DNA from: Desulfurivibrionaceae bacterium
GTDB taxonomy: Bacteria > Desulfobacterota > Desulfobulbia > Desulfobulbales > Desulfurivibrionaceae
Assembly (NCBI GenBank): GCA_041675265.1
Contig: JBAYUD010000005.1
Coordinates: 11,222-75,221 of the forward strand
Length of the DNA stretch: 64,000 bases
Direction of reading: 5' to 3'
In this document: positions 4,392 through 59,231 of the stretch, piece after piece
Layout of the letters: every line of letters begins with the position of its first letter
Numbering within the stretch: the stretch's first letter is position 1
Program-made: the position numbers and the translations under genes
The notes under the pieces: generated by a model
The model's input: the letters and a program-made list of their open reading frames with translations, nothing else
The model's database searches: none
What the model was told of the DNA's origin: nothing

Positions 4392-5708
4392 ATGGATATT
4401 CGTTTACGATTCTTTTTTCCTGTGCTGGCGGTGCTGGCGTCCCTTTTCTCCGGCTGCGCGATGAATCCCGTTACCGGCAAGTCCGAGCTGGCTTTTTACA
4501 GCTTGAGCGAACAGGAAGAAGTCTCCCTCGGCAAAAAGGCCTTTCCCGAGGTAATCCAACGGATGCAGGGGGAGTACGATGATCCGCATCTTAAGGAGTA
4601 CGTCACCGCGATTGGAATGCGCCTGGCCAAGGTCAGCCATCGGCCCAATCTTCCCTATGCCTTCAAGGTGGTGAACGACTCCAGCCCCAATGCCTTTGCC
4701 ATGCCCGGCGGCAATATCGCCATCACCCGCGGTCTGCTGGTTGCCCTGGAAAACGAGGCCCAGCTTGCCGCGGTGCTGGGGCATGAGCTTGGTCATGTCA
4801 CGGCCCGGCATTCGTTGCAGAACCTGCAACGCGGGATATTGTTCAACATCGGTCTGCAGGTTTTGTCCTATGGGAGCAGTGGAACTTCTTACGGCATCCT
4901 GGCGCAGCAGGCAGGGCAGGTGGCAGGCGCGCTGCTGGACAGCTCGTACAGCCGCGAGGAGGAGCGGGAGGCTGACCGGCTGGGTATTGATTATATGGTG
5001 AAGGCTCAGTACAGCCCCAAGGGTGCCGTGGAGTTGCAGGAATTTTTGGCCCAAAAAAGTGGAGAGGGGGAAGCCCTGTGGCTCCAAGGGCTGTTCCGGA
5101 CCCATCCTTTCTCCAAGGAACGGATGCGGGATAACCAGTACTACATCGACAGCAACTACAACTGGGCCATGAACAATGAGGCGTATGTCTCCGGGGCCGG
5201 AGAGTTCCAACGGGCCATGGCGCCGTTGAGGAAAACCAAGGAGGCGTATGACGATTACGATAAGGGCAGGGAAAAAGAGCAGGCTAAGGATCTGGCCGGA
5301 GCCATTGCCCTGTATGAGCAGGCGGTTCACAAAGCCCCGCGGCAGGCTCTGCTGCAAAATGCACTGGGAATGGCGTATCTGAAAAACGACAGCCCGGAGC
5401 AAGCAAAAAAATATTTGAGCAAGGCCGTGCAGCTGGATGGGGATTATCACGAAAGCCATTTCGGCCTTGGCTACCTGTACCTGCAGGAGAACAATCCCGC
5501 CTCGGCCAAGGAACATCTGCAAAAAAGCATGAAGCTTATGCCCACCTTGGGGAGCGCCTTTTTTCTTGCCGAAAGCTATGAAAAAACCGGGGAGCTTGCA
5601 AAGGCCCATGCCTTATACGGTCAGGTGGCGGCGGCTGATTCACGCGGGAACCTGGGCAGGGCCGCGGCTGCCAGATACAGAGCGCTTGGGGGGACGGGCC
5701 GCCGTTAG
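4392..5708 (+). CDS. M48-family Zn metalloprotease lipoprotein with TPR repeats (BepA/YfgC-like)
   Basis: Lipobox LFSGC, NAFAMPGG, HELGH zinc motif, YSREEEREADRLG, RTHP, C-terminal TPR-like helices. Confidence 0.9.
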   Translation: MDIRLRFFFPVLAVLASLFSGCAMNPVTGKSELAFYSLSEQEEVSLGKKAFPEVIQRMQGEYDDPHLKEYVTAIGMRLAKVSHRPNLPYAFKVVNDSSPNAFAMPGGNIAITRGLLVALENEAQLAAVLGHELGHVTARHSLQNLQRGILFNIGLQVLSYGSSGTSYGILAQQAGQVAGALLDSSYSREEEREADRLGIDYMVKAQYSPKGAVELQEFLAQKSGEGEALWLQGLFRTHPFSKERMRDNQYYIDSNYNWAMNNEAYVSGAGEFQRAMAPLRKTKEAYDDYDKGREKEQAKDLAGAIALYEQAVHKAPRQALLQNALGMAYLKNDSPEQAKKYLSKAVQLDGDYHESHFGLGYLYLQENNPASAKEHLQKSMKLMPTLGSAFFLAESYEKTGELAKAHALYGQVAAADSRGNLGRAAAARYRALGGTGRR

Positions 5709-6706: not shown

Positions 6707-8188
6707 ATGACACTGAGTCAATTGTTGTCCACCATCCTGGTGATTCCCGGGATCATTTTTCTCATTGCCGCGGCGCGGCTTTGCATGCAGACCAGGCGGC
6801 TGGTTCCCCTTTCCTGCGTGGGAAAATGGCGGGCTCTGTCTGCCCTGAATGTGTTTTTTATTGCCGGATACCTTTTCTTTATCATCATTCAGGTCAGACA
6901 TCTTGTTTTTCCGGTGGAACTCATCACCGGGCTGGTTTTTTTCGGTGGTTCCCTCTTTGTTTTCCTGGTCATCGGCCTGTCCAGGCTCACCATCACCAGG
7001 GTGCATGAGGCGGACCTGGAAATCGTCCGGACGAATACCGCCCTTGTTCAGAAAAACACGGAGCTTGAAAAGGAGATTGTCGCCCGGCTTGAGGCGGAAG
7101 GACGGGCCAAGGCAAGGCTCCAGCATCTGACCACCCTGCACGCCATCGACATGGTGATTACCGCGAGTCTGGATCTGCGGCTGACCATGAAGCTTTTTCT
7201 GGAACAGACCGTGTCGCAGCTGGGCATGGATGCCGGGGCCATTCTTTTGCTCAACACCCACACCCAGACCCTGGATCATGGGGCGGATTGGGGTTTTGAA
7301 GGGATCGGCATCCGCAAATCCAAGGTGCGGCTTGGCGAAGGCGGGGCCGGGATTGCCGCCTATGAGCGGCGGGTCGTTCATATTCCGGATATTGACGAAC
7401 AGCCCAATCCGTTTGTCCGCAATGAGTTGCTCATAAAAGAAAAATTCATAACCTATTATGCTGTGCCCCTCATTGCCAAAGGGCAGGTGAAGGGCGTTTT
7501 CGAGATTTTTTCCCGGGAGCGGTTTGAGGCCGACCCGGAATGGTCCGATTTTTTTGAGGCCTTGGCCATTCAGGCGGCAATCGCCATCGATAACGCGACG
7601 CTTTTCCGCAAACTCCAGGAGTCGAACATCGAATTGACCCTGGCCTACGACACCACCATCGAGGGCTGGGCAAAGGCTCTGGAGCTGCGCGATTCGGAAA
7701 CCGAGGGCCATACCCAGCGGGTGGCGGAGCTCACCTTGAAGGTGGCCTGCGCCTTGGGCATCCGGGAGGATGAGCTGGATCATGTCCGCCGCGGCGCCCT
7801 GCTCCATGATATCGGCAAGATGGCGGTGCCGGATACGGTTTTGATGAAGCCCGGCCCGCTCACCGAAGAGGAGCAGCAGATTATGCGGCGGCATCCGGCC
7901 TTTGCCTTTGACCTGTTGTCCCCCATTCACTATCTGCGCCCGGCCCTGGATATCCCCTATTGTCATCATGAACGGTGGGATGGCACCGGTTATCCGCGCG
8001 GCTTGAAAGGCGAGCAGATTCCCCTGGCGGCCAGGATCTTCTCCATTGCCGACAATTGGGACGCCCTGATCTCGGCCCGGCGCTATCGGGAGGCATGGCC
8101 TCCGGAAAAGGTTGCCCAACACATCCGTTCCCTGGCCGGAACCCAGTTTGATCCGAATCTGGTGGATATCTTTTTGGCTTCGGTATGA
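6707..8188 (+). CDS. Membrane-anchored GAF + HD-GYP c-di-GMP phosphodiesterase
   Basis: Three N-terminal TM segments, GAF region, HDIGK and HHERWDGTGYP motifs. Start uncertain (TTG 6605 or ATG 6707). Confidence 0.9.
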   Translation: MTLSQLLSTILVIPGIIFLIAAARLCMQTRRLVPLSCVGKWRALSALNVFFIAGYLFFIIIQVRHLVFPVELITGLVFFGGSLFVFLVIGLSRLTITRVHEADLEIVRTNTALVQKNTELEKEIVARLEAEGRAKARLQHLTTLHAIDMVITASLDLRLTMKLFLEQTVSQLGMDAGAILLLNTHTQTLDHGADWGFEGIGIRKSKVRLGEGGAGIAAYERRVVHIPDIDEQPNPFVRNELLIKEKFITYYAVPLIAKGQVKGVFEIFSRERFEADPEWSDFFEALAIQAAIAIDNATLFRKLQESNIELTLAYDTTIEGWAKALELRDSETEGHTQRVAELTLKVACALGIREDELDHVRRGALLHDIGKMAVPDTVLMKPGPLTEEEQQIMRRHPAFAFDLLSPIHYLRPALDIPYCHHERWDGTGYPRGLKGEQIPLAARIFSIADNWDALISARRYREAWPPEKVAQHIRSLAGTQFDPNLVDIFLASV

Positions 8189-8284: not shown

Positions 8285-9718
8285 ATGGGCAAGGCAAAAT
8301 TTGGGAGGGGTAATCTCTTGCGGATCATCGTGGTTGTCGTGGCGGTTGCCTGGTTGGCTCTCATGGCGTATGGAAAGGGTAAGCCCCTGCCCAAGGGGGT
8401 CTCGTTTGCAGGGGTGGCGCGTGTTGCCTCGGAGGTCGAGTTTCTGGCCGATCGCACCTATCAGCGGGACGGGCAGCCGGTGCGCGAGCAAGCCATTTTT
8501 AGCCGGATCCACCGGATCATCGACAAGGCTGAGCGTTTTGTTCTGCTCGACCTTTTTCTCTTCAACAGCGTTCATGCCCCAGGGGAGAAATATCCTCCCC
8601 TGTCCGAGGAGATGACCCGCAGGCTCGTTGAAAAAAAACAGCGGTCGCCCCAGGTGGACATTGTGCTCATCACCGATCCGATCAACCGGAGCTACGGAGG
8701 GGAGGAACCGGAGCATTTCAAGAGGTTGCGGGCAAGCGGGGTGCGGATCATTTACACCGATACCGGCAAGCTGCGTGATTCCAACTTCATCTACTCGGCC
8801 TGGTGGCGGCTTTTTTACCAATGGTTCGGCGTCAACGGGGAAGGCTGGCTGCCGTCGCCTTTCGCTAAAAATGGCCCGGCCATGACCATGCGGGGGTATT
8901 TGAGCCTGTTCAACTTCAAGGCCAATCACCGCAAGGTGGTGGCCAGTGAAAAAGAGGCGCTCATCACCTCCGCCAACCCCCATGACGCAAGCGGTTACCA
9001 TTCCAACATCGCCATCGTCGCCCAAGGGGCGGTGGTGCGGGATGTCGTCGCGGCGGAGGCTGCGGTGGCAAGCCTTTCCGGCGAGACTTTGCCCCAATGG
9101 GAGATCCCGGATCGCCCCGAAGCCGGCACCGTGCATCTGTGCCTGCTCACCGAAGGGAAGATCAAGGCGCGGCTGTTAACGGCCCTCTCCCGTTGCGGGA
9201 GCGGCTGTTCGGTGCGGATGGCCATGTTCTATCTCTCCGACCGCGAGATTATCGCAGGACTTCTCGGGGCAGCGGCCAGGGGGGCCGAGGTGCGGCTGCT
9301 CCTTGATCCCAACAAGGATGCCTTCGGCCGCAAAAAAAACGGCATCCCCAACCGGCCGGTGGCCCGGGAGCTTGTCGAGAAATCCCAGGGCAAAATCCAG
9401 GTGCGCTGGTACGGGACGCGCGGCGAGCAGTTTCATCCCAAGCTGGCCATGATTGCCCTGCCTCGAGAAACAGTGCTCATCGGTGGCTCGGCCAATCTGA
9501 CCCGGCGGAATCTTGACGACCTGAACCTGGAGGCCTGCCTTGAGGTGACGGGCCCGGCGGATTCTCCGGTGGCCAGGGAGGCAAACGATTATTTCGAGAG
9601 GATCTGGCGGAACCGGGATGGGGTCTATTCCGTTGATTACAAGGAGTTTGCCGAAAATTCGCCGCTTCGGTACGGTCTCTACCGTTTTCAGGAGTGGAGC
9701 GGGATGTCCACATTTTAA
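8285..9718 (+). CDS. Phospholipase D superfamily protein
   Basis: N-terminal TM anchor; two HxK motifs (NHRKVV..SAN, FHPKLA..GSANL). Confidence 0.85.
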   Translation: MGKAKFGRGNLLRIIVVVVAVAWLALMAYGKGKPLPKGVSFAGVARVASEVEFLADRTYQRDGQPVREQAIFSRIHRIIDKAERFVLLDLFLFNSVHAPGEKYPPLSEEMTRRLVEKKQRSPQVDIVLITDPINRSYGGEEPEHFKRLRASGVRIIYTDTGKLRDSNFIYSAWWRLFYQWFGVNGEGWLPSPFAKNGPAMTMRGYLSLFNFKANHRKVVASEKEALITSANPHDASGYHSNIAIVAQGAVVRDVVAAEAAVASLSGETLPQWEIPDRPEAGTVHLCLLTEGKIKARLLTALSRCGSGCSVRMAMFYLSDREIIAGLLGAAARGAEVRLLLDPNKDAFGRKKNGIPNRPVARELVEKSQGKIQVRWYGTRGEQFHPKLAMIALPRETVLIGGSANLTRRNLDDLNLEACLEVTGPADSPVAREANDYFERIWRNRDGVYSVDYKEFAENSPLRYGLYRFQEWSGMSTF

Positions 9719-49283: not shown

Positions 49284-49302
49284 ATCCAGGCAAACAAAAA
49301 AC

Positions 49303-49331
49303 TTGACTTCCCCCCACATTGAGCCGATATT
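49303..49331 (+). promoter_or_regulatory. Candidate sigma70 promoter of a small RNA
   Basis: TTGACT (49303-49308), exactly 17 bp, GATATT (49326-49331); no plausible protein gene downstream on this strand. Confidence 0.55.
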
Positions 49332-49336
49332 GTAGG

Positions 49337-49399
49337 CAGCTCATCTACCATGTGTGGAAGGAGTAACGAAGCCGTCCTCGGGGCGGCTTCAGCTTTTTT
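49337..49399 (+). ncRNA. Candidate structured small RNA convergent on the DUF3800 operon
   Basis: Hairpin TCTAC/GTGGA, AGGAG linker, stem GAAGCCGTCC/GGGCGGCTTC, AGC, then TTTTTT; possible closing helix AGCT/AGCT. Confidence 0.55.
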
Positions 49400-49889
49400 G
49401 ACTATTCGTTCGCCAATAGTCATCATGTTCCCTCAGCAATTTTCGTTGCCGATGCGGCTGTTCAACCAGATAGGCTGTCCACGGAAGAATGTAATCGCCG
49501 CGATCTGCCAGGATGACCAAGTAGTTTTCCTGCGCGAACCATAAACACACCCTTTCTTCCTTGCCACGTCGGTTGCGCCAGATCTTAATGGCCGGATCGT
49601 CGTCGTGTTCAATGATCGGTCGAGGCCAGCGTATCCGCTCACAACGTCGGAAATCTGGCGTACGATCTTCCTCAATATCTCCGTCCTGGATCATGTGCCA
49701 GAAGGTCGCTTCCTTGCCATGGGTCAGCGGGTGCCGTTTCAAGCCGAGCCGCCGTCCCTGAAACAGAGGCTTGCTGTCGAGGAAGTCTTGCTTGAACCAG
49801 GCGTAAACGGCATCCAGATATGCATCCCAGTTGCCGTGGTAGTCGTTGAACAGGACCAGCGGCGGCAGCCAATCCGGCGTTGCGCTCAT
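49389..49889 (-). CDS. Uncharacterised DUF3800-partner protein
   Basis: 166-aa ORF starting 2 bp after the DUF3800 stop; FWHMI, RRCERIRWP and LPWTAY motifs. Confidence 0.8.
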   Translation of the reverse strand: MSATPDWLPPLVLFNDYHGNWDAYLDAVYAWFKQDFLDSKPLFQGRRLGLKRHPLTHGKEATFWHMIQDGDIEEDRTPDFRRCERIRWPRPIIEHDDDPAIKIWRNRRGKEERVCLWFAQENYLVILADRGDYILPWTAYLVEQPHRQRKLLREHDDYWRTNSQKS

Positions 49890-49891
49890 CC

Positions 49892-50596
49892 CTAAATCTC
49901 CGACGCGTGCCAGCGGAAAAGATTAACCTTTTCCTCGCGTAGCAGGGTCGATTTGGTCAAACAGTAGCCGGAGCGTTGCCGCATTCGTTCAATCAGCGCC
50001 ATTTTCCCGGCATTCCCCTGCAATCCTCGGTTCAGGTAAGCAACCGCGCCAATGAGCAGGTCGGCCAGTTGCAACTGCTCGATTTCGTGGGAGTGTACCA
50101 GTTGCAACCGTTCGATCACCTCTTGCGAGAAATCGTACCTGTCGTTGCACAGCACCTCGTGCAGCTTGGCCGCCTTCTCCGCCCCGCGAGTGTCCTTGAT
50201 GTCGAGGTATATCCGGTAGCTGGCATCGGGCCGGAAGATGACTTTCAGCATGTCGAAGTACATCTTGTAATACCAGCCGTCATGGTCCTGGCCGGGAAAG
50301 GCGTCGTGGTGCAGCAGAGTTTTGTCCGGCACGATCAAGGCACGGAAGTGCAGATCGTCGTCATCGAAGAAATAATCGACTAGATCAAGGTACAGCTCTT
50401 TCTTGGCAGGCGAAACCTTGGTCCACTTCACCTCAAAATGCGGCGGCAGTCCGTGCTTCTGTTTGATTTCGCGCAACCGGACGGCAATCTCCCTGGTCTT
50501 GTCCAACGGGCACCAGATGGCTCCCAGCACCATGGCCTTCTGGTGATCGTTTTCCAGATGGCAGGATTCATCACAGTAGATGTTATATGTGCTCAT
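49892..50596 (-). CDS. DUF3800-domain protein
   Basis: N-terminal IYCDESCH, VLGAI, EVKWTK and C-terminal QLADLLIG. Confidence 0.85.
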   Translation of the reverse strand: MSTYNIYCDESCHLENDHQKAMVLGAIWCPLDKTREIAVRLREIKQKHGLPPHFEVKWTKVSPAKKELYLDLVDYFFDDDDLHFRALIVPDKTLLHHDAFPGQDHDGWYYKMYFDMLKVIFRPDASYRIYLDIKDTRGAEKAAKLHEVLCNDRYDFSQEVIERLQLVHSHEIEQLQLADLLIGAVAYLNRGLQGNAGKMALIERMRQRSGYCLTKSTLLREEKVNLFRWHASEI

Positions 50597-50641: not shown

Positions 50642-52408
50642 TTATGCCACCGCCTGTTCGACGATGGCGTCGGCCAATTGGACTTGGGTAATTTTGGCGT
50701 CGTGCAACCGTTCTTTGAGGGTGTCGCAGAGGGCCAGCAGTTCATCGACTTTGGCGACGATGCGGTGTTGTTCGGCTAGTGGGGGCAGTGCTATTAACAA
50801 CATACGAATTTGATCTCTCGAAACATTTTTCATCGAACTACTCGTACCACCGGCAACTCTTGAATAATACTCACGGGAGGAAGAACTCCCATTCGCCAAA
50901 TTAACAAATTGAGTATTGCTGCTCCGTGAAAATACAAATCTGATAATTTTATCACTCATCATAAGACGAGGAGGAGTTTCTTTCGGGACTATAACAGCAC
51001 GTGCTACAAGTTCTGATGTATTAGCTCTCGAAATCAAAAAATCATCAGGAAAAACTTCAAATTCAGGTCTCGGTCTTAAATTAGCCGGTAATGCTTTGTT
51101 TTCATCTGGGTTATATTGGCCCCACGAAACTGCGCTTACTTTGAGAACACCCCAATCATTATCTTTTCTTGGGGTGGGCTCACAATTGGGGCTCCATCCA
51201 GCTTCAGAACGTAAAGCGAGATCATCCAGCCTTACCCACCCCCAACCTACCGGCAAATCAAAAGGCTTTTCATCCTCACTGATTTTCGGCAAAGTTTTTT
51301 GCTTTTTGATTTTGCCTTCTTTAATGAGTTTTGCTTTTTCTTTGGCGATTTTTTCCAGCAGGGTGCTGGCGGGTTCGTCGTTGGGGTTTTGGGGGACGAG
51401 TTTGCCCATGACGGCGAGTTGGAGGATGGTTTGTTTGAGTTGGTCGATGGACTCTTCGGTGGTGAACAGGGTGTCGAAGTGACCCACGATGCGTTGCCAG
51501 CTTACAGCAAACTCGGCTGGATCGGCGACGGTGGTGAGGGTGGCAAGCAGGGTTTCCACCAGGGTTTGGTGGGTATCGTTACTGTCGGCTTGTTGCTGTT
51601 CCAGCTTGTCGCAGAGGGCCATCAGTTCATCGACTTTGGCGACGATGCGGTGTTGTTCGGCTTTTGAAGTAATTGGGAACAAAGCAAGCCGGGCTTTTTC
51701 AGTGCCCATGCGTGGAAGATTCATTCCATGAGTTGAATCATTAGCATACCGAATAAAGCAGGGGGACTTCATTACAAGCCGGAGGTACTGCGAGGCTATA
51801 TGAGCATAGCCTTTGAGAGGGACCATTTCAGTTGTGCAAATCCCGTTTTCATCAGCCACTATTACTTTGTCGAGATATGGCCGCAATTTCCCGTAGATCA
51901 CGTCCCCTTTAGAAAATACATTCTTTGAACTTCTAAACTGTCTATCAGCAACTCTTACTTTTTGTAAAAGCTTGGAAGTATCTTTTTCGACGTCCTCTAA
52001 TTCAAGAATCCAGGTGTCCTCACTAACGGAACCAGGCTCAGCTTTTTCTGAAAATCCATAATCAGTAACGTTTCCAAGCCGTGTCCACCCCCACCCTTTC
52101 GGCAATTCATATGGCTTTTCATCCTCGCTGATTTCCGGCAGGGACGTATCTTTTTTGATTTTGCCTTCCTTAATGAGCCGAGCTTTTTCTTTGGCGATTT
52201 TTTCCAACAATACGCTGGCCGGTTCGTCTTTTGGGTCTTGCGGCACCAGTTTGCCTCGCACGGCCAATTCCAAAATCAACTCCCGCAACTTCTTAATGCC
52301 ATGCGGGCTTTGCCCGTTCGACCCTCTCCCGCGCCCCCTCCCGCCATTGGCCTTGGGAATTTCAGCACCAGTCCAGGTGGCAATATGTTCGGTAATCAAA
52401 TCCATCAT
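50642..52408 (-). CDS. hsdS: Type I RM specificity subunit (EcoAI/type IB-like, two TRDs)
   Basis: Duplicated conserved regions (IL.LAV.GKLVPQ.P.DEPAS.LLEKI; EQHRIVAKVDEL.ALCD) around two AT-rich TRDs. Confidence 0.95.
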   Translation of the reverse strand: MMDLITEHIATWTGAEIPKANGGRGRGRGSNGQSPHGIKKLRELILELAVRGKLVPQDPKDEPASVLLEKIAKEKARLIKEGKIKKDTSLPEISEDEKPYELPKGWGWTRLGNVTDYGFSEKAEPGSVSEDTWILELEDVEKDTSKLLQKVRVADRQFRSSKNVFSKGDVIYGKLRPYLDKVIVADENGICTTEMVPLKGYAHIASQYLRLVMKSPCFIRYANDSTHGMNLPRMGTEKARLALFPITSKAEQHRIVAKVDELMALCDKLEQQQADSNDTHQTLVETLLATLTTVADPAEFAVSWQRIVGHFDTLFTTEESIDQLKQTILQLAVMGKLVPQNPNDEPASTLLEKIAKEKAKLIKEGKIKKQKTLPKISEDEKPFDLPVGWGWVRLDDLALRSEAGWSPNCEPTPRKDNDWGVLKVSAVSWGQYNPDENKALPANLRPRPEFEVFPDDFLISRANTSELVARAVIVPKETPPRLMMSDKIIRFVFSRSSNTQFVNLANGSSSSREYYSRVAGGTSSSMKNVSRDQIRMLLIALPPLAEQHRIVAKVDELLALCDTLKERLHDAKITQVQLADAIVEQAVA

Positions 52409-52477: not shown

Positions 52478-52897
52478 AAATGCAGAATTAAAAATGGCAA
52501 ATGCAAAATTATTGTTTCCCCAGGTTGTTCTTTGTATTCTTGATGATTGTAACGAAGATCGCTGTCAACTCTCTTGATTCCTGAAGCAAATCCGCAAGGT
52601 TGCTCTCGGTCATGATCCCACCTTCGACCAGCAATTCAAGCCAGTATGTTGTTTCATCGAGTTCCTTGAGACAATCACCCATCTTAGCCACAAACTCTGC
52701 TTTGGATCTGCCACGCGACGCCTCCCTGTAGTTTGCGCCGACCGATGTACCGGAACGTAGCACTTGTTTCCCTAATACTCTCGCTTCAGTCGACTTTGGC
52801 AATGTCGAATACATGGCTAAAATCCGCAGGGCAAATTTCTTAGTCCGATCTTTCAGGTCTTTCTCGTTTTGCATTCTAAATTCTACTTTTTGCCTTT
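52478..52897. repeat. Inverted 7-nt-periodic arrays flanking the four-helix-bundle gene
   Basis: Plus strand 52478-52512: AAATGCA GAATTAA AAATGGC AAATGCA AAATTAT. Minus strand 52897-52863: AAAGGCA AAAAGTA GAATTTA GAATGCA AAACGAG. Confidence 0.65.
52509..52874 (-). CDS. Four-helix-bundle protein (23S rRNA IVP / bAvd-like family)
   Basis: LKDRTKKFALRI, QVLRSGTSVGANYREA, SKAEFVAK, ELDETTYWLELL. Confidence 0.92.
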   Translation of the reverse strand: MQNEKDLKDRTKKFALRILAMYSTLPKSTEARVLGKQVLRSGTSVGANYREASRGRSKAEFVAKMGDCLKELDETTYWLELLVEGGIMTESNLADLLQESRELTAIFVTIIKNTKNNLGKQ

Positions 52898-53339
52898 ATG
52901 CAGCTTGCTCCATCTCGGAGAGTCCCTTTTCTGCCAGGCGCCTCTCGTTGGTGGTATAGCCTTGGATCAGGTGGTCTTTCAGGACCGAAGTCGCCCAAAT
53001 GCGAAATTGGGTGCCGCGTTGCGACTTGACCCGGTAGCCGACGGAAATAATGACGTCAAGATTATAGAAGGCGACCGGTTTATCTGAATTTGCAATATGC
53101 ATTTTTTGCATATTGCTTTCCTCGGCCAACTCTCCTTCCTTGAAAACATTGCGGAGATGACGGGAGATGACGGACTGATCTCTTTGAAAAAGCTCAACCA
53201 TCTGGGTCTGGCTCAACCAGACGGTTTCATCAGCCAGATGCACGTCGAGTCCGGCCCGGCCGTCAGCGGACTTATAGATAATAATCTCACCCTGGGCGGG
53301 ATGACCTTGGTTGTCCATGCTCACTTCTTCACGTTTCAT
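52896..53339 (-). pseudogene. RhuM-family protein, N-terminal part only (Fic/DOC half missing)
   Basis: ETVWLSQTQMVELF, YNLDVIISVGYRVKS.RGTQFRIWAT; stops at EMEQAA exactly at the heptamer array. A C-terminal-like remnant (REDLLIRLTVNLLA) lies at 52405-52476. Confidence 0.7.
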
Positions 53340-54811
53340 TTGCCCTTCCCCAGACAGCCCAGGAGCTCCTTCTTCAAGGCCTCGCGGGTCGCCGCCACCT
53401 CGGCCTGCTGCCTGGCATACTTGGCCAGCAACACTTCGGGATCGTGGATGATCTGTTCGCCGACATGGGGGTTCTTGATATCCAGGTTGTAGCTGCGGGC
53501 TTTGATATCATCAATCGTGACCTTCCAGGCCTGTTCGGTTTCGACCCTGGCCGCAAAACCATCTGCCTCGCTGCCCCACCAGTCGATCTCCGGCTGGAAC
53601 TCTTCAAAGCGCATGGGCTTGGTCTTGTTATAGCTGACAACGCCTTCCGGGTAGGGGTGCTCGTAATACCAGATCTGCTCGGTGGGCTGGCCTTTGGTGA
53701 AAAAGAGCAAGTTGGTTTTGATGCCGGTGTAGGGGTTGAAGACGCCGTTGGGCAACCGGACAATGGTGTGCAGGTTGCACTCGGCCAGCAGTTTTTCCTT
53801 GAGGCGGGTCTTCATACCCTCGCCAAAGAAAAAGCCATCGGGCAGAACCACGGCGGCGCGGCCCTGATCTTTGAGCAGGTGGATGATCAGGGTCATGAAG
53901 AGGTCGGCGGTTTCTCGGGTGCGGAAGGTGGCCGGGAAGTTGTTTTCGATGCCGTCTTCTTCCATGCCGCCAAAGGGCGGGTTGGTGACGATGACCTTGA
54001 CCCGGTCTTTATTGGTGTAGTCCCGCAGGGGGCGGCTCAGGGTGTTGTCGTGCTTGATGTTGGTCGGGGTGTCGATGCCATGCAGAATCATGTTGGTAAC
54101 GCAGAGCATATGGGGCATGGACTTTTTCTCGACCCCGTTGATCGTGGCTTGCAGGGTCTCTTCATCCGCTGCCGATTTTACATAGTTTTTGCGCTTGTGC
54201 TCGATGGTGCAGGACAAAAAGCCGCCGGTGCCGCAGGCTGGGTCGAGCACGGTTTCGTCTAGTGTGGGGTTGACCCGATCGACGATAAATCTGGTGACGG
54301 CCCGTGGGGTGTAGAACTCCCCGGCATTGCCGGCGGATTGCAGGTCTTTAAGAATCTGCTCGTAAATGGAGCCGAAGGTATGGCGATCTTCCTTGGTGTT
54401 GAAGTTGATCTCGCAGATTTTATTGATCACCTGACGCATCAGGGTGCCGGATTTCATGTAGTTGTAGGCGTCTTCAAAAACGTCTTTCACCACCAGCGCC
54501 CGTTTGCCGCCCGGCCCCAGGGTATTGAGTTTGTTTTTCAGGGTCGGGAAGAGCTGGAGATTAACAAAATCGGACAACTCGTCACCGGTCATCCCTTCCG
54601 AATCCTTGGCCCAGGACCGCCAGCGGAGATGAGCCGGCAGCGGGGATTTGTAGTCATCTTCGAGAAGTTCCAGCTCGGCTTCGCGGTCGTCAAAGATTTT
54701 CAGAAAAAACATCCAGACCAACTGACTGATGCGCTGGGCATCGCCATCGACACCGACATCCTTGCGCATGATGTCCTGGATGGATTTGATGATGCCGGAA
54801 ACGTTACTCAT
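53336..54811 (-). CDS. hsdM: Type I RM m6A methyltransferase subunit
   Basis: GEFYTPR, LDPACGTGGFL, NPPF motif IV, ATFRTRETADLF. Confidence 0.97.
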   Translation of the reverse strand: MSNVSGIIKSIQDIMRKDVGVDGDAQRISQLVWMFFLKIFDDREAELELLEDDYKSPLPAHLRWRSWAKDSEGMTGDELSDFVNLQLFPTLKNKLNTLGPGGKRALVVKDVFEDAYNYMKSGTLMRQVINKICEINFNTKEDRHTFGSIYEQILKDLQSAGNAGEFYTPRAVTRFIVDRVNPTLDETVLDPACGTGGFLSCTIEHKRKNYVKSAADEETLQATINGVEKKSMPHMLCVTNMILHGIDTPTNIKHDNTLSRPLRDYTNKDRVKVIVTNPPFGGMEEDGIENNFPATFRTRETADLFMTLIIHLLKDQGRAAVVLPDGFFFGEGMKTRLKEKLLAECNLHTIVRLPNGVFNPYTGIKTNLLFFTKGQPTEQIWYYEHPYPEGVVSYNKTKPMRFEEFQPEIDWWGSEADGFAARVETEQAWKVTIDDIKARSYNLDIKNPHVGEQIIHDPEVLLAKYARQQAEVAATREALKKELLGCLGKGK

Positions 54812-57156
54812 GCGGATTGCTCCTGATTAAACAACTCTTTCTCCAATTCCTGAATGGCGTTTTCGTACTCTGTTTTCCCGCCAAAGACCTGATTGATAAT
54901 CTCCATGGGGGTGCCCATATCGCTGAAGGGCTGGAGCTTGAGGATCTTGGCGTTTTCAAGGGAACGGATACCTTCATTGGCGTAGTTATCGAGCAAGGCG
55001 GTGAGTACTGCCCGGGCCTGCTCGCCGTATTTGGTAAAGTAGTTGCGTTTTTTGACATTATTGGCCCGCTCTTTACGGGTAAGCGGGGGCTGATCATAGG
55101 CGATATGACAGATAAGGTCAAAGTCTCCGTAGTCACGACCCACTTCCTCGGCAAGATTATCAAGCACGATGCCGTGTTCTTCCAGGAGTTCGAGAATTAT
55201 CTGTTTCTTTTGCGCGCTGTTCCATCTGCGGAGGAAATCATCAAGGGTCGCAAACTCTGACTTGATCTGCTTGCGGGAAAAATCCCGGTACGATTCGGTA
55301 ATCAGGGTGCCGTCCGGGCCGATGTATTCGATCCGCTCGGCGATGATTTTGGCCGAAACCCCGCTGATGTAAACTTTTTTGCTCTCACAAGTTTCCGGTG
55401 GATCGATTACAGGATCGTCATCATATGGTTTCGGGTCGGGCGGAACAGGGGGTTCATCCGGGCCGGGCTCAAAGATAACCACCGGCTCACCGTCAAAATC
55501 AGGATCTCGGAACAGCTCGGTAGCCTTCTTAAAATCCATGATGGTGAAGTAGTACTTGTTTTGCTCTTCCTCGATCCGGGTGCCGCGCCCGATGATCTGC
55601 TTGAACATGGTCATGGAGTTGATATTTTTATCCAAGACAATGACCTTGCAGGTTTTGGCATCCACCCCGGTGGACAAGAGCTCCGAGGTTGTGGCGATAA
55701 CCGGGAACTTGCTTTCCGGATCGATAAAGTTGTCGAGTTCGGCTTTGCCCTCGACACTGTCGCCGGTGATGCGCATCACATATTTAGGGTTATCGATGGC
55801 GATTTGCCCGGCAGCATTCACGATGGCGCGGCGCATGCGTTCGGCGTGGTCGATATCCTCACAGAAAATAATGGTTTTCGCGAAGGGATCGGTGGCATTG
55901 AGAAGTTGCATGACCCGTCTGGCCACCAGCCTTGTCCGCTGATTGAGAACGAGGATGCGGTCCATATCTTTCTGGTTATAGGTCCGACTTTCGATTTCCT
56001 GACCAAGGTCATCAAGCATTCCCGGAGGTGGTGTCCAGCCTTCGATATCTTTATCGATATCGATACGCACCACCTTATAGGGGGCGAGAAAACCATCCTC
56101 GATGCCCTGCTTTAAGCTGTAAGTATAAACAGGCTCACCAAAATAGGTGAGGTTGGAAACATATTTTGTTTCCTTGGGGGTGGCTGTCATGCCGAGTTGG
56201 ATGGCGCTTGAAAAATAATCGAGGATTTCGCGCCAGGCCGAATCGTCGGCAGCGCTGCCGCGATGACACTCGTCAATGACGATCATGTCGAAAAAGTCTG
56301 GAGAGACGTTTTTGAAGATTTTGTCCTCTTCGTCTGTCCCGGTTATGGCCTGATAGAGAGCGAGATGGATTTCGTAGGACGGGTCGATCTTGCGGTTTTT
56401 GACCTTGGCCATGACCGAGCCGAAGGGCTTGAAATCGTTGACCAGGGTTTGGTCGGCAAGGATATTGCGATCAACCAGAAAGAGAACGCGCTTGACGGCC
56501 TTTGCCTTCCAGAGTCGCCAGATAATTTGAAAGGTGGTGTAAGTCTTGCCGGTGCCGGTGGCCATGACCAGCAGAATGCGCTTTTGGTTGTTGGCCACCG
56601 CTTCAACCACTCGGTTAATGGCCTCGGTCTGATAGTAGCGGGGCTCTTTGCCGGAACTGTCCGTGTGATAGGGCTGCAGGACCAGCTCATCGGAAGTATC
56701 ATTGATGCCGCGAAATGATTTATAGCGTTGCCAAAGTATTTCGGGTGGAGGAAACGCTTCGAGCGGAAATTCCGTTTCAATGTCTTCGCCGATCTTTATT
56801 GCTTCTTTATTATGCGAGGCAAAGGCATCACCGTTAGAACTGAAGGCGCTGGGAACTTTGAGTATATCTGCATAGCCCAATGCTTGCTGCATACCGTCGC
56901 TCACGGTGTGGTTGTTGTCCTTGGCTTCGACTACCGCGACGGGGACACCGGGCTCCCAAGAAAGGATGTAATCTGCGAATTTTTTCTTCTTCTTGTTCCG
57001 GGACGACATATTGCCCCGCACAATAACAGGGCCTGGGGTGAGAGTAACCTCGCGCCGAATCTGTTTTAATTGATCCCAGCCAGCATCTTTAAGGGCAGGC
57101 GTGATGAACAAATCGCAGATATCGATTTCGCTGAGTTCTTTTTTGTCCATTTGCAA
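54808..57156 (-). CDS. hsdR: Type I RM restriction subunit (EcoEI/EcoAI-like)
   Basis: AVVEAK nuclease, RYYQ, MATGTGKT, DECHRG, QIIGRGTR, EcoEI-type C-terminus. Confidence 0.97.
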   Translation of the reverse strand: MQMDKKELSEIDICDLFITPALKDAGWDQLKQIRREVTLTPGPVIVRGNMSSRNKKKKKFADYILSWEPGVPVAVVEAKDNNHTVSDGMQQALGYADILKVPSAFSSNGDAFASHNKEAIKIGEDIETEFPLEAFPPPEILWQRYKSFRGINDTSDELVLQPYHTDSSGKEPRYYQTEAINRVVEAVANNQKRILLVMATGTGKTYTTFQIIWRLWKAKAVKRVLFLVDRNILADQTLVNDFKPFGSVMAKVKNRKIDPSYEIHLALYQAITGTDEEDKIFKNVSPDFFDMIVIDECHRGSAADDSAWREILDYFSSAIQLGMTATPKETKYVSNLTYFGEPVYTYSLKQGIEDGFLAPYKVVRIDIDKDIEGWTPPPGMLDDLGQEIESRTYNQKDMDRILVLNQRTRLVARRVMQLLNATDPFAKTIIFCEDIDHAERMRRAIVNAAGQIAIDNPKYVMRITGDSVEGKAELDNFIDPESKFPVIATTSELLSTGVDAKTCKVIVLDKNINSMTMFKQIIGRGTRIEEEQNKYYFTIMDFKKATELFRDPDFDGEPVVIFEPGPDEPPVPPDPKPYDDDPVIDPPETCESKKVYISGVSAKIIAERIEYIGPDGTLITESYRDFSRKQIKSEFATLDDFLRRWNSAQKKQIILELLEEHGIVLDNLAEEVGRDYGDFDLICHIAYDQPPLTRKERANNVKKRNYFTKYGEQARAVLTALLDNYANEGIRSLENAKILKLQPFSDMGTPMEIINQVFGGKTEYENAIQELEKELFNQEQSA

Positions 57157-59156: not shown

Positions 59157-59231
59157 GGGCGATTAGCTCAGCGGGAGAGCACTGCCTTCACACGGCAGGG
59201 GTCACTGGTTCGATCCCAGTATCGCCCACCA
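59157..59231 (+). tRNA. tRNA-Val (anticodon CAC)
   Basis: GGGCGAT/ATCGCCC acceptor stem, TAGCTCAG, CTGCC-TTCACAC-GGCAG anticodon arm, GGTTCGATCC, encoded CCA. Confidence 0.97.

Follow-up and report, generated by a model that had tools for sequence, protein, structure and literature searches.

A small RNA gene is part of the RlfA-RlfB module

We identified a small RNA (sRNA) gene in a 64,000-nucleotide (nt) stretch of DNA of a Desulfurivibrionaceae bacterium (GenBank assembly GCA_041675265.1, contig JBAYUD010000005.1, positions 11,222 to 75,221 of the forward strand; hereafter the window), which lies at the 3' end of a gene pair homologous to rlfA and rlfB of bacteriophage P1 and is very probably a genuine part of the RlfA-RlfB module. 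The RlfA-like protein is a DUF3800 protein, and the pair follows hsdS on the minus strand, the strand of a type I restriction-modification (R-M) operon (Table 1). We propose that the sRNA is an independent third component of the module, that it acts in trans as a protein ligand with an antitoxin-like role, and that copies of the RNA carried by phages are decoys; we put the probability of this reading as a whole at roughly 0.4.

An alignment of RlfB was used to retrieve 80 genome loci. A DUF3800 gene is located directly upstream of rlfB in 74 of them, and the sRNA gene adjoins rlfB in every locus that has DNA past the rlfB stop codon (77/77). Of 33 IMG/VR loci encoding RlfB relatives (33-48% identity), 22 have enough flanking sequence, and the sRNA gene adjoins rlfB in all 22. 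Together with covariation in both helices (see below), these counts bear out the link between a structured sRNA, a DUF3800 gene and its partner that a first-pass annotation of the window had put forward. The RNA is also better conserved than the genes it accompanies: over 61 loci its 31-nt core has a mean identity of 93.8% to the window, versus 68% for rlfB DNA and 73% for rlfA DNA. Variation in the sRNA region is confined to the helices, the loops and the promoter spacer, with practically no change in the 5' AGCUCAU, in the loop CC or in AAGGAGU(A/U)ACG. The near-invariant stretch AAGGAGUAACG includes a Shine-Dalgarno-like AAGGAG, which is partly sequestered by the outer helix of the first hairpin, and its sole variable spot is the A/U position of UAAC. 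The RNA may mimic or bind a universal cellular component, an idea that is kept because the RNA is so much more conserved than the proteins.

The promoter is conserved in position as well. In 78 loci a -35 element TTGAnT at -35 to -30, a -10 element nATAnT at -12 to -7 and a pyrimidine at -1 are kept, and the sequence of the spacer drifts while the geometry before an invariant A stays the same. This fixed geometry places the 5' end of the RNA at the A of AGCUCAU; in the window, 6 nt separate GATATT from this A(+1). Seven promoter-like sites were found in 5 kb of the window, where 4.5 ± 2.2 were expected, which is not above chance; it is the comparison with related loci, not the count in the window, that makes the promoter more than a chance match. 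A generic bidirectional terminator with a fortuitous promoter match would agree with this count, which is no higher than in shuffled sequence, and with the weak Rfam matches of the sRNA, which stem from the terminator hairpin. The comparative data refute it, and we give it practically no weight: conservation is not restricted to a generic terminator hairpin, since no part of the locus is as conserved as the 5' half, which precedes the terminator, the promoter keeps its position in the 78 loci, and phage copies drop the U tail and retain all other features.

Some loci depart from this arrangement. In L024, L057 and L076 the rlfB frame continues through the RNA gene and stops inside GATGAGCT, so that the RNA is fully antisense to coding sequence. 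Five loci of Marinobacter and Pseudidiomarina (L061, L065, L067, L072 and L080) carry a 12-13-nt GC-rich insertion in the loop of the first hairpin, ACCAGCCCACGGGCGUAAGUGUGG, with the rest unchanged; this loop evidently tolerates an added hairpin. The metagenomic contig L218, in which RlfA and RlfB were detected by tblastn, contains two identical RNA copies (4872-4935 and 7369-7432, minus strand) about 2.5 kb apart with identical upstream flanks.

Structure and covariation of the sRNA

The sRNA unit is predicted to fold into two hairpins, P1 and P2, with a minimum free energy (MFE) of -26.3 kcal/mol (z = -3.5), and covariance model R1 detects a single copy in the window. In addition to the loop of hairpin P1 and P2, the RNA contains the segment AAGGAGUAAC. 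The sequence features that had been described from the letters of the window were all recovered: the promoter TTGACT-17-GATATT, an approximately 60-nt fold made of a hairpin, a 10-bp GC stem and a U6 tail, a two-gene operon after hsdS on the same strand according to the open reading frame (ORF) coordinates, and an overlap of the terminator stem, identified by a terminator scan, with the TGA of the rlfB-like gene at 49389-49391. Two details had to be corrected. The operon and the RNA gene do not meet head-to-head but converge tail-to-tail, and the proposed closure of the RNA by AGCU/AGCU gives way to the better supported outer helix GCUC/GAGU, the 3' copy being AGCC in most relatives.

Covariation across homologous loci, suggested at the outset as a check, was found in both helices. 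In alignment A2 (MAFFT, 77 sequences) pairing within the proposed helices amounts to 98.5%, 10 of the 19 pairs have changed on both sides, and the covariation score was equalled by none of 500 shuffles. As a control, the 3' partners were slid by 1-3 columns, which reduced pairing to 37-54%. Alignment A5, comprising 100 sequences of a largely different set, gave 98.3% pairing and both-side changes in 12/19 pairs; it was aligned to the model and is therefore biased towards structure. All seven strongest pairs by mutual information are helix pairs, and the mutual-information scan gave no tertiary or pseudoknot covariation. The stem of P2 has both-side changes in 8/10 pairs in A2 and in 10/10 in A5. 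In the inner helix of hairpin P1 two pairs changed on both sides and one varies between AU and GU, with 99% of cells paired, and pairs of this helix rank among those of highest mutual information. Its variants include UCUAC/GUAGA, UUUAC/GUAAA and UCCAC/GUGGA, and phage copies add UCAAC/GUUGA, UGAAC/GUUCA and UGUAC/GUACA. The outer helix GCUC/GAGU is invariant, so its covariation speaks neither for nor against it. By comparison of sequences, the marks of an independent sRNA gene are all present: -35 and -10 elements at conserved distances from a fixed +1, together with a GC-rich stem that covaries and leads into a U tract.

The sRNA as an independent unit acting in trans

In most loci the sRNA gene is convergent to rlfB. 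In three IMG/VR loci (L235, L236 and L247) it is co-directional with rlfB, about 90 nt downstream and without overlap, and is preceded by a perfect promoter, TTGACA-17-TATACT-6-A. These loci indicate that antisense overlap is not needed, and by the same token that the RNA would act in trans. Convergence, with the tail of the RNA over the rlfB stop codon, would suit a cis-antisense regulator of the type I kind or one working by convergent transcription, that is, pairing with the 3' end of the rlfB/rlfA mRNA or transcriptional interference. The rlfB ORF crosses the RNA gene in three loci, and the hairpin lacks a U tract on the mRNA strand, so that read-through would give a fully complementary 3' untranslated region. 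We nevertheless regard such a regulator as improbable. It does not account for the co-directional loci, and the orphan copies described below have no antisense target. Pairing requires no conservation of sequence, yet the single-stranded bases are invariant, and a test over 71 loci led us to reject base pairing between the sRNA and the starts of translation of rlfA and rlfB (mean z = -0.3). The sRNA gene is thus most likely an independent transcription unit whose product acts in trans.

A wetland metatranscriptome (run X30) contains a 206-nt contig of low depth with a 97%-identical rlfB, which spans window positions 49388-49593. It ends at 49388, in the stop codon and terminator stem, and has no sequence over the sRNA gene. 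It weakly suggests that relatives of rlfB are expressed in nature. The runs that contain the window itself are DNA metagenomes, RNA-seq runs with phage P1 are represented by long contigs without strand direction, and no P1 reads occurred in two runs examined as raw reads.

RlfA and RlfB proteins

The two adjacent genes match the PADLOC models PDC-M04A (E 6e-97) and PDC-M04B (E 3e-73), and both proteins (234 and 166 amino acids) look soluble. An RNase H-like fold has been predicted for DUF3800 (PMC10910872, PMC7736814), and residues D9, E10 and Q176..D179 of RlfA, which form the DE and QxxD motifs of DUF3800, are conserved in at least 97% of 76 sequences. RlfB-like protein has no Pfam family. 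Its family comprises 2182 proteins at E<=1e-5, from Proteobacteria, Chlorobiota, Planctomycetota, Nitrospirota, Chloroflexota, Spirochaetes, Verrucomicrobia and phages of Actinobacteria. Invariant residues in the RlfB alignment are F63, W64, H65, R82, R85, W88, W104, Y123 and V125. The motifs FWHMI, RRCERIRWP and LPWTAY, singled out early on, are present in the protein and are among its most conserved stretches. Searches of PDB sequences with the RlfA-like and RlfB-like proteins gave no match.

RlfB was modelled with AlphaFold2 from 46 diverse sequences; the model (predicted local distance difference test score, pLDDT, 92.2; predicted template modelling score, pTM, 0.87) replaced one built from 23 close homologues (pLDDT 69). 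In the predicted fold, helices precede an antiparallel sheet of four strands, and a long helix forms the C terminus. No PDB match to this model was found by Foldseek at E<=1e-3. The best of the weak matches are to RNases of the BECR fold, namely HigB1, colicin D, RelE and Cami1 (E 0.1-1.8, template modelling (TM) scores 0.2-0.38), HigB1 being the best (E 0.1, TM 0.24/0.31), and a fold search of BFVD returned one uncharacterised homologue only. RlfB has conserved His, Arg and Tyr residues. The suggestion that the partner is a BECR-like RNase is therefore a faint lead rather than a result, its best fold matches being of this kind and none of them reaching E<=1e-3.

The rlfA-rlfB pair and sRNA of phage P1

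A tblastn search of GenBank phages related the RlfA-like protein to RlfA of phage P1 (55% identity, E 6e-71) and the RlfB-like protein to RlfB (41% identity, E 4e-27). RapA and RapB of phage P7 are homologous as well, and about 100 P1-like phage-plasmids of E. coli and Salmonella have the pair. Phage P1 also has the sRNA, on the minus strand of NC_005856.1 at about 52906-52976 (48.4 bits with R1), a position without annotated feature in that record. It has a TTGAAA-17-TAGATT-6-A promoter and is convergent, with its tail at the rlfB stop codon; its sequence has diverged to ACUCAU and GAAAGAGCGAUCG. Gene order and convergent RNA are hence as in the window; the setting differs, the P1 genes following repL/oriL behind the C1 operator Orlf. 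The pair is annotated only as 'possibly associated with lytic replication', published texts that mention rlfA/rlfB give neither a function nor an RNA, and the genes are located in a region that is variable among P1-like plasmids (PMC6906374). In Bifidobacterium phage Bbif-1 the sRNA scores 48.9 bits with R1, and RlfB is just 31% identical.

The replication setting in phage P1, with the genes after repL/oriL and behind a C1-controlled operator, could mean that the RNA is a primer or regulator of replication processed by the RNase H-like RlfA, as its annotation would have it. RNA II of ColE1 and RNase H are a precedent for a replication-linked RNA. We consider this highly improbable. Most cassettes are chromosomal, with R-M or defence genes and no replication genes around them, and the sequence of the RNA does not depend on the DNA that flanks it. 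Phage P1 grows unimpaired after knock-down of rlfA or rlfB (PMC10695390).

Orphan copies of the sRNA in phages and metagenomes

Copies of the RNA that stand alone were found by BLAST and pattern scans and scored with R1. They occur in Vibrio phages 1.084.O and 1.121.O, in 11 phi3T/SPbeta-like Bacillus phages, in a Geobacillus phage and on 18 IMG/VR contigs, with scores of 56-76 bits; the phi3T copy, which was excluded when R1 was built, reaches 55.9 bits. RlfA and RlfB are not encoded at any orphan viral locus, nor, according to tblastn, elsewhere in the genomes of the GenBank phages. The IMG/VR copies are usually without promoter and are located within tRNA arrays, on the tRNA strand. In L095 the RNA takes up nearly all of the space from tRNA-Arg to tRNA-Leu, and in L082 it begins 4 nt past a tRNA, so that ordinary tRNA processing would yield an RNA whose ends match those of the bacterial RNA.

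Three of these phage loci have further features. A 12.5-kb IMG/VR stretch (L084) has a single array of 31 tRNA genes plus one tmRNA gene, in which the RNA separates tRNA-Lys from tRNA-Asn. In the tRNA array of L094 a second, diverged RNA copy (7618-7680, minus strand, 29 bits) adjoins the main one. In phi3T (L221, KY030782.1) two direct repeats of about 28 nt, CAGTTGRCARGCAACATAAAAACTTG, are found upstream of the RNA at about 2790-2935, within a 700-nt stretch that has no annotated gene.

In metagenomes RlfB is present beside 67 of the 96 RNA matches with room for the gene, among the matches listed; the other 29 look phage-like, or bear a promoter and stand beside other defence or toxin-antitoxin genes. 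Neighbours of these promoter-bearing copies without RlfB include AAA_15/AAA_21 ATPases, a macro-domain protein and a DUF5615 PIN-like protein. In L186 a promoter-bearing RNA (8447-8510, plus strand) is convergent to a different DUF3800 gene, seemingly split (144 + 93 amino acids), without RlfB.

These copies could mean that the RNA functions independently of the cassette, for example in translation, RNA processing or phage takeover, or that it is a selfish gene, with the cassette linked to it and exploiting it or monitoring it as bait. Orphans are found within the tRNA arrays of phages as well as in temperate Bacillus phages, and promoter-bearing copies stand beside unrelated defence and toxin-antitoxin genes, which is in line with this; conservation across phages of Gram-positive and Gram-negative hosts suggests a universally conserved partner. 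Such an autonomous RNA is quite unlikely in our view: starting from the protein, linkage is found in 99/99 loci, the boundary of the cassette takes in the RNA promoter, and the sRNA has neither similarity to 16S rRNA above shuffled sequence nor an Rfam family, tRNA included.

Proposed mode of action

In the reading we prefer, the sRNA would act in trans as a specific ligand of a protein, recognised through its shape and its invariant single-stranded bases. Its direct partner would more likely be the DUF3800 protein RlfA, because in L186 the RNA accompanies another DUF3800 gene without RlfB and because DUF3800 genes are in general associated with RNAs (PMC5737381). The sRNA would restrain a nuclease or toxin activity of the pair, as the RNA antitoxin of a type III system does, and loss of host transcription or decay of the RNA during infection would release this activity. 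Phages that carry the RNA alone, often in tRNA arrays whose processing would free it, would use it as a decoy or antidote. We offer the inhibitory role, with the phage copies as decoys, tentatively. In a more specific version, which we hold to be unlikely, the RNase H-like RlfA and a possibly BECR-like RlfB would form a two-protein toxin that targets RNA, and the sRNA would be an antitoxin that mimics the substrate of this toxin. Mimicry of a universal cellular RNA would then explain the near-invariant sequence of the sRNA, and the processed copies in phage tRNA arrays, from Vibrio to Bacillus phages, would be natural and widespread decoys against defence.

Several observations weigh against the proposal. 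The sRNA transcript, its binding to protein, and the toxicity and anti-phage activity of the pair are predictions from sequence comparison. The RNA is far more conserved than its proteins, which is unusual for an antitoxin and might indicate a cellular target or a cofactor role. Among the matches listed, about 10-15% of the promoter-bearing metagenomic copies adjoin other defence or toxin-antitoxin genes, and the IMG/VR orphans were viewed over 4-15 kb per contig, so that RlfA or RlfB could lie elsewhere on these contigs. In phage P1, the C1 operator Orlf before rlfA implies that the proteins are possibly made mainly in lytic growth, which may fit defence of the lysogen less simply, and rlfA and rlfB were non-essential and without reported phenotype in a CRISPR interference screen of phage P1 (PMC10695390).

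The main rival turns the role of the RNA around: it would be a positive cofactor, which the RNase H-like DUF3800 protein needs as scaffold, activator or fixed 'guide' for recognition or cleavage of its target, and the effector would be an RNA-protein complex. Nucleases of the RNase H fold, which DUF3800 is predicted to share, are often RNA-dependent (PMC10910872, PMC7736814), and DUF3800 proteins accompany Cas12a2/a3 and Cas13 systems (PMC13594972, 10.64898/2026.08.25.746378). Strict co-occurrence and extreme conservation of the RNA suit an essential catalytic or recognition role, and the invariant AAGGAG could conceivably pair with a universal sequence such as the anti-Shine-Dalgarno of 16S rRNA. 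The RNA has no variable, guide-like segment, however, its variation being limited to helices and loops, and phages with the RNA alone would hand a host weapon its cofactor, unless the RNA serves them otherwise. We consider a cofactor role somewhat unlikely.

DUF3800 genes have been found beside many unrelated structured RNAs since 2017, and the reason for this association becomes tractable now that one such RNA is linked to a defined cassette, which has three parts and is about 1.3 kb long. Its presence in phage P1 allows direct study in E. coli and gives rlfA/rlfB of this phage a concrete functional hypothesis. The protein-only definition of PDC-M04 omits a component, and expression tests without the RNA could consequently fail or be toxic. 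The RNA-only copies of phages, which would be excised like tRNAs, suggest a contest between phage and host over the RNA; if true, this would make the RNA one of few RNA-based anti-defence elements. Should the RNA be a substrate-mimicking antitoxin, it would represent a new class of RNA-based counter-defence and provide the first function for any DUF3800-associated RNA.

Extent of the cassette and its genomic setting

Nucleotide homology of the window to L001 (94%), L205 and L135 ends at 49293/49279, just 5' of the -35 element, and on the other side at the start of rlfA. The boundary at 49293 indicates that rlfA, rlfB and the RNA gene with its promoter travel together as a unit of about 1.3 kb (Table 1), in which the two protein genes are 2 nt apart. 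Just outside this boundary, the non-conserved spacer is occupied by a 22-nt inverted repeat (49087-49108/49281-49302, 86% complementary, 172 nt apart) and by direct repeats of the TCAAGCAA type (49178-49199/49265-49286).

Table 1. Position of the sRNA cassette, its parts and the genes of the surrounding operon in the window.
Feature	Position	Strand	Remarks
Conserved three-part cassette: rlfA, rlfB, sRNA with promoter	49293-50596		Nucleotide homology limits
Sigma-70 promoter of sRNA	49303-49331	+	-35 TTGACT 49303-49308, 17-nt spacer, -10 GATATT 49326-49331
Small RNA gene, ~62 nt, AGCUCAUCUACCAUGUGUGGAAGGAGUAACGAAGCCGUCCUCGGGGCGGCUUCAGCUUUUUU	49338-49399	+	Covariance model R1, 82.7 bits
Hairpin P1	49339-49364	+	Outer helix 49339-49342/49361-49364 (GCUC/GAGU), 1x2 internal loop, inner helix 49344-49348/49354-49358, loop CAUGU 49349-49353
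Near-invariant stretch AAGGAGUAACG	49358-49368	+	Entropy profile; alignments A2, A3, A5
Intrinsic terminator P2	49368-49399	+	10-bp stem 49368-49377/49381-49390, tail AGCUUUUUU
rlfB-like gene, 166 aa	49389-49889	-	PADLOC PDC-M04B
rlfA-like gene, DUF3800 protein, 234 aa	49892-50596	-	Pfam DUF3800 E 1e-14; PADLOC PDC-M04A
hsdS (long)	50642-52408	-	
Four-helix-bundle '23S rRNA intervening sequence' protein gene	52509-52874	-	
rhuM-like N-terminal fragment, 147 aa	52896-53339	-	Strong PADLOC PDC-S05/S23 matches
hsdM	53336-54811	-	Type I R-M operon
hsdR	54808-57156	-	Type I R-M operon

The rhuM-like fragment and the four-helix-bundle gene are located between hsdM and hsdS (52509-53339, minus strand), and the R-M operon hence has several embedded accessory genes. 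A tRNA-Val gene (59157-59231, plus strand) is found about 2 kb past the start of hsdR; the entire R-M/defence island may have been inserted beside this tRNA gene.

Comparison with known systems

The pair is indeed embedded in a type I R-M operon, as noted at first, and is catalogued as the defence candidate PDC-M04, which came from 'guilt by embedding' in known defence systems (Payne et al., 10.1101/2024.01.29.577857). Like the pair in the window, PDC-M04 consists of adjacent M04A and M04B matches; its definition is that of an unvalidated candidate of two proteins, with no RNA component described. Neither the name PDC-M04 nor the sRNA sequence occurs in searchable paper texts. The anticodon nuclease PrrC is likewise embedded in type I R-M loci (10.1101/2024.01.29.577857). 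By analogy, the cassette would be an add-on to the hsd operon that encloses it and could plausibly step in once restriction has been disabled. PrrC is unrelated to RlfA and RlfB and is not known to have an RNA component.

Type III toxin-antitoxin systems (ToxIN, CptIN and TenpIN) use a small, abundant RNA to neutralise the toxin protein; they occur among defence genes, and phages escape them by carrying the RNA, as with phage-borne pseudo-ToxI. The logic proposed here for the sRNA would resemble that of type III systems and pseudo-ToxI. Unlike the RNA of these systems, which is a tandem array of direct repeats located upstream of the toxin gene, the sRNA is present as a single copy without tandem repeats, is located downstream of the protein genes, usually convergent to them, and has its own promoter; the cassette encodes two proteins, neither of which matches the ToxN/AbiQ, CptN or TenpN type families in Pfam, NCBIfam or PADLOC. 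Type I toxin-antitoxin systems differ in that the cassette has no small hydrophobic peptide and the overlap is absent in the co-directional loci. Type VII retrons, in which a reverse transcriptase is combined with DUF3800 (PMC7736814), also couple a DUF3800 effector to a dedicated non-coding nucleic acid, whereas the genes neighbouring the cassette lack a reverse transcriptase domain and the sRNA is a two-hairpin RNA rather than an msr-msd RNA.

A scan of Rfam 15, including the DUF3800 motifs proposed at the outset as possible relatives, assigned the sRNA to no family (window, 76-nt and 1.8-kb stretches, 17 genome loci, 15 viral loci and the phage P1 copy), and no DUF3800 model matched the 76-nt stretch, the 1.8-kb stretch or the P1 copy even at E<=10. 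In the window and 17 related loci none of these motifs attained its gathering score, a separate DUF3800-V RNA in L064 excepted. By-eye likenesses to the 16S decoding site/helix 45, the tRNA D-arm, the tRNAfMet anticodon loop and the sarcin-ricin loop were dropped as unsupported. Local alignment of the sRNA to E. coli 16S rRNA was no better than with shuffled sequence, and R1 had no match at the rrsA locus.

The nearest known kind of RNA is formed by the motifs DUF3800-I to -XI (for instance RF02969, RF02964 and RF02968), structured RNAs without known function that adjoin DUF3800 genes (Weinberg et al. 2017, PMC5737381). Like the sRNA, they are found next to a DUF3800 gene in either orientation and in many phyla, often end in an intrinsic terminator, and frequently contain a UAA trinucleotide. 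The sRNA differs from them in being tied to one DUF3800 subfamily and to a second protein, RlfB, and in occurring alone in phages. In L064, of 'Candidatus Anammoxibacter', a DUF3800-V RNA scores above the gathering score (4909-5004, minus strand, 40.7 bits) about 370 nt from the sRNA on the same strand, with no second DUF3800 gene within 2 kb, and this rlfAB locus thus holds two different DUF3800-type RNAs. To judge from its sequence, the sRNA belongs to the DUF3800-associated kind of RNA and matches no deposited model; what appears to be new is that it occupies a fixed position in the RlfA/RlfB (PDC-M04) cassette, that phage P1 has it and that phages bear orphan copies.

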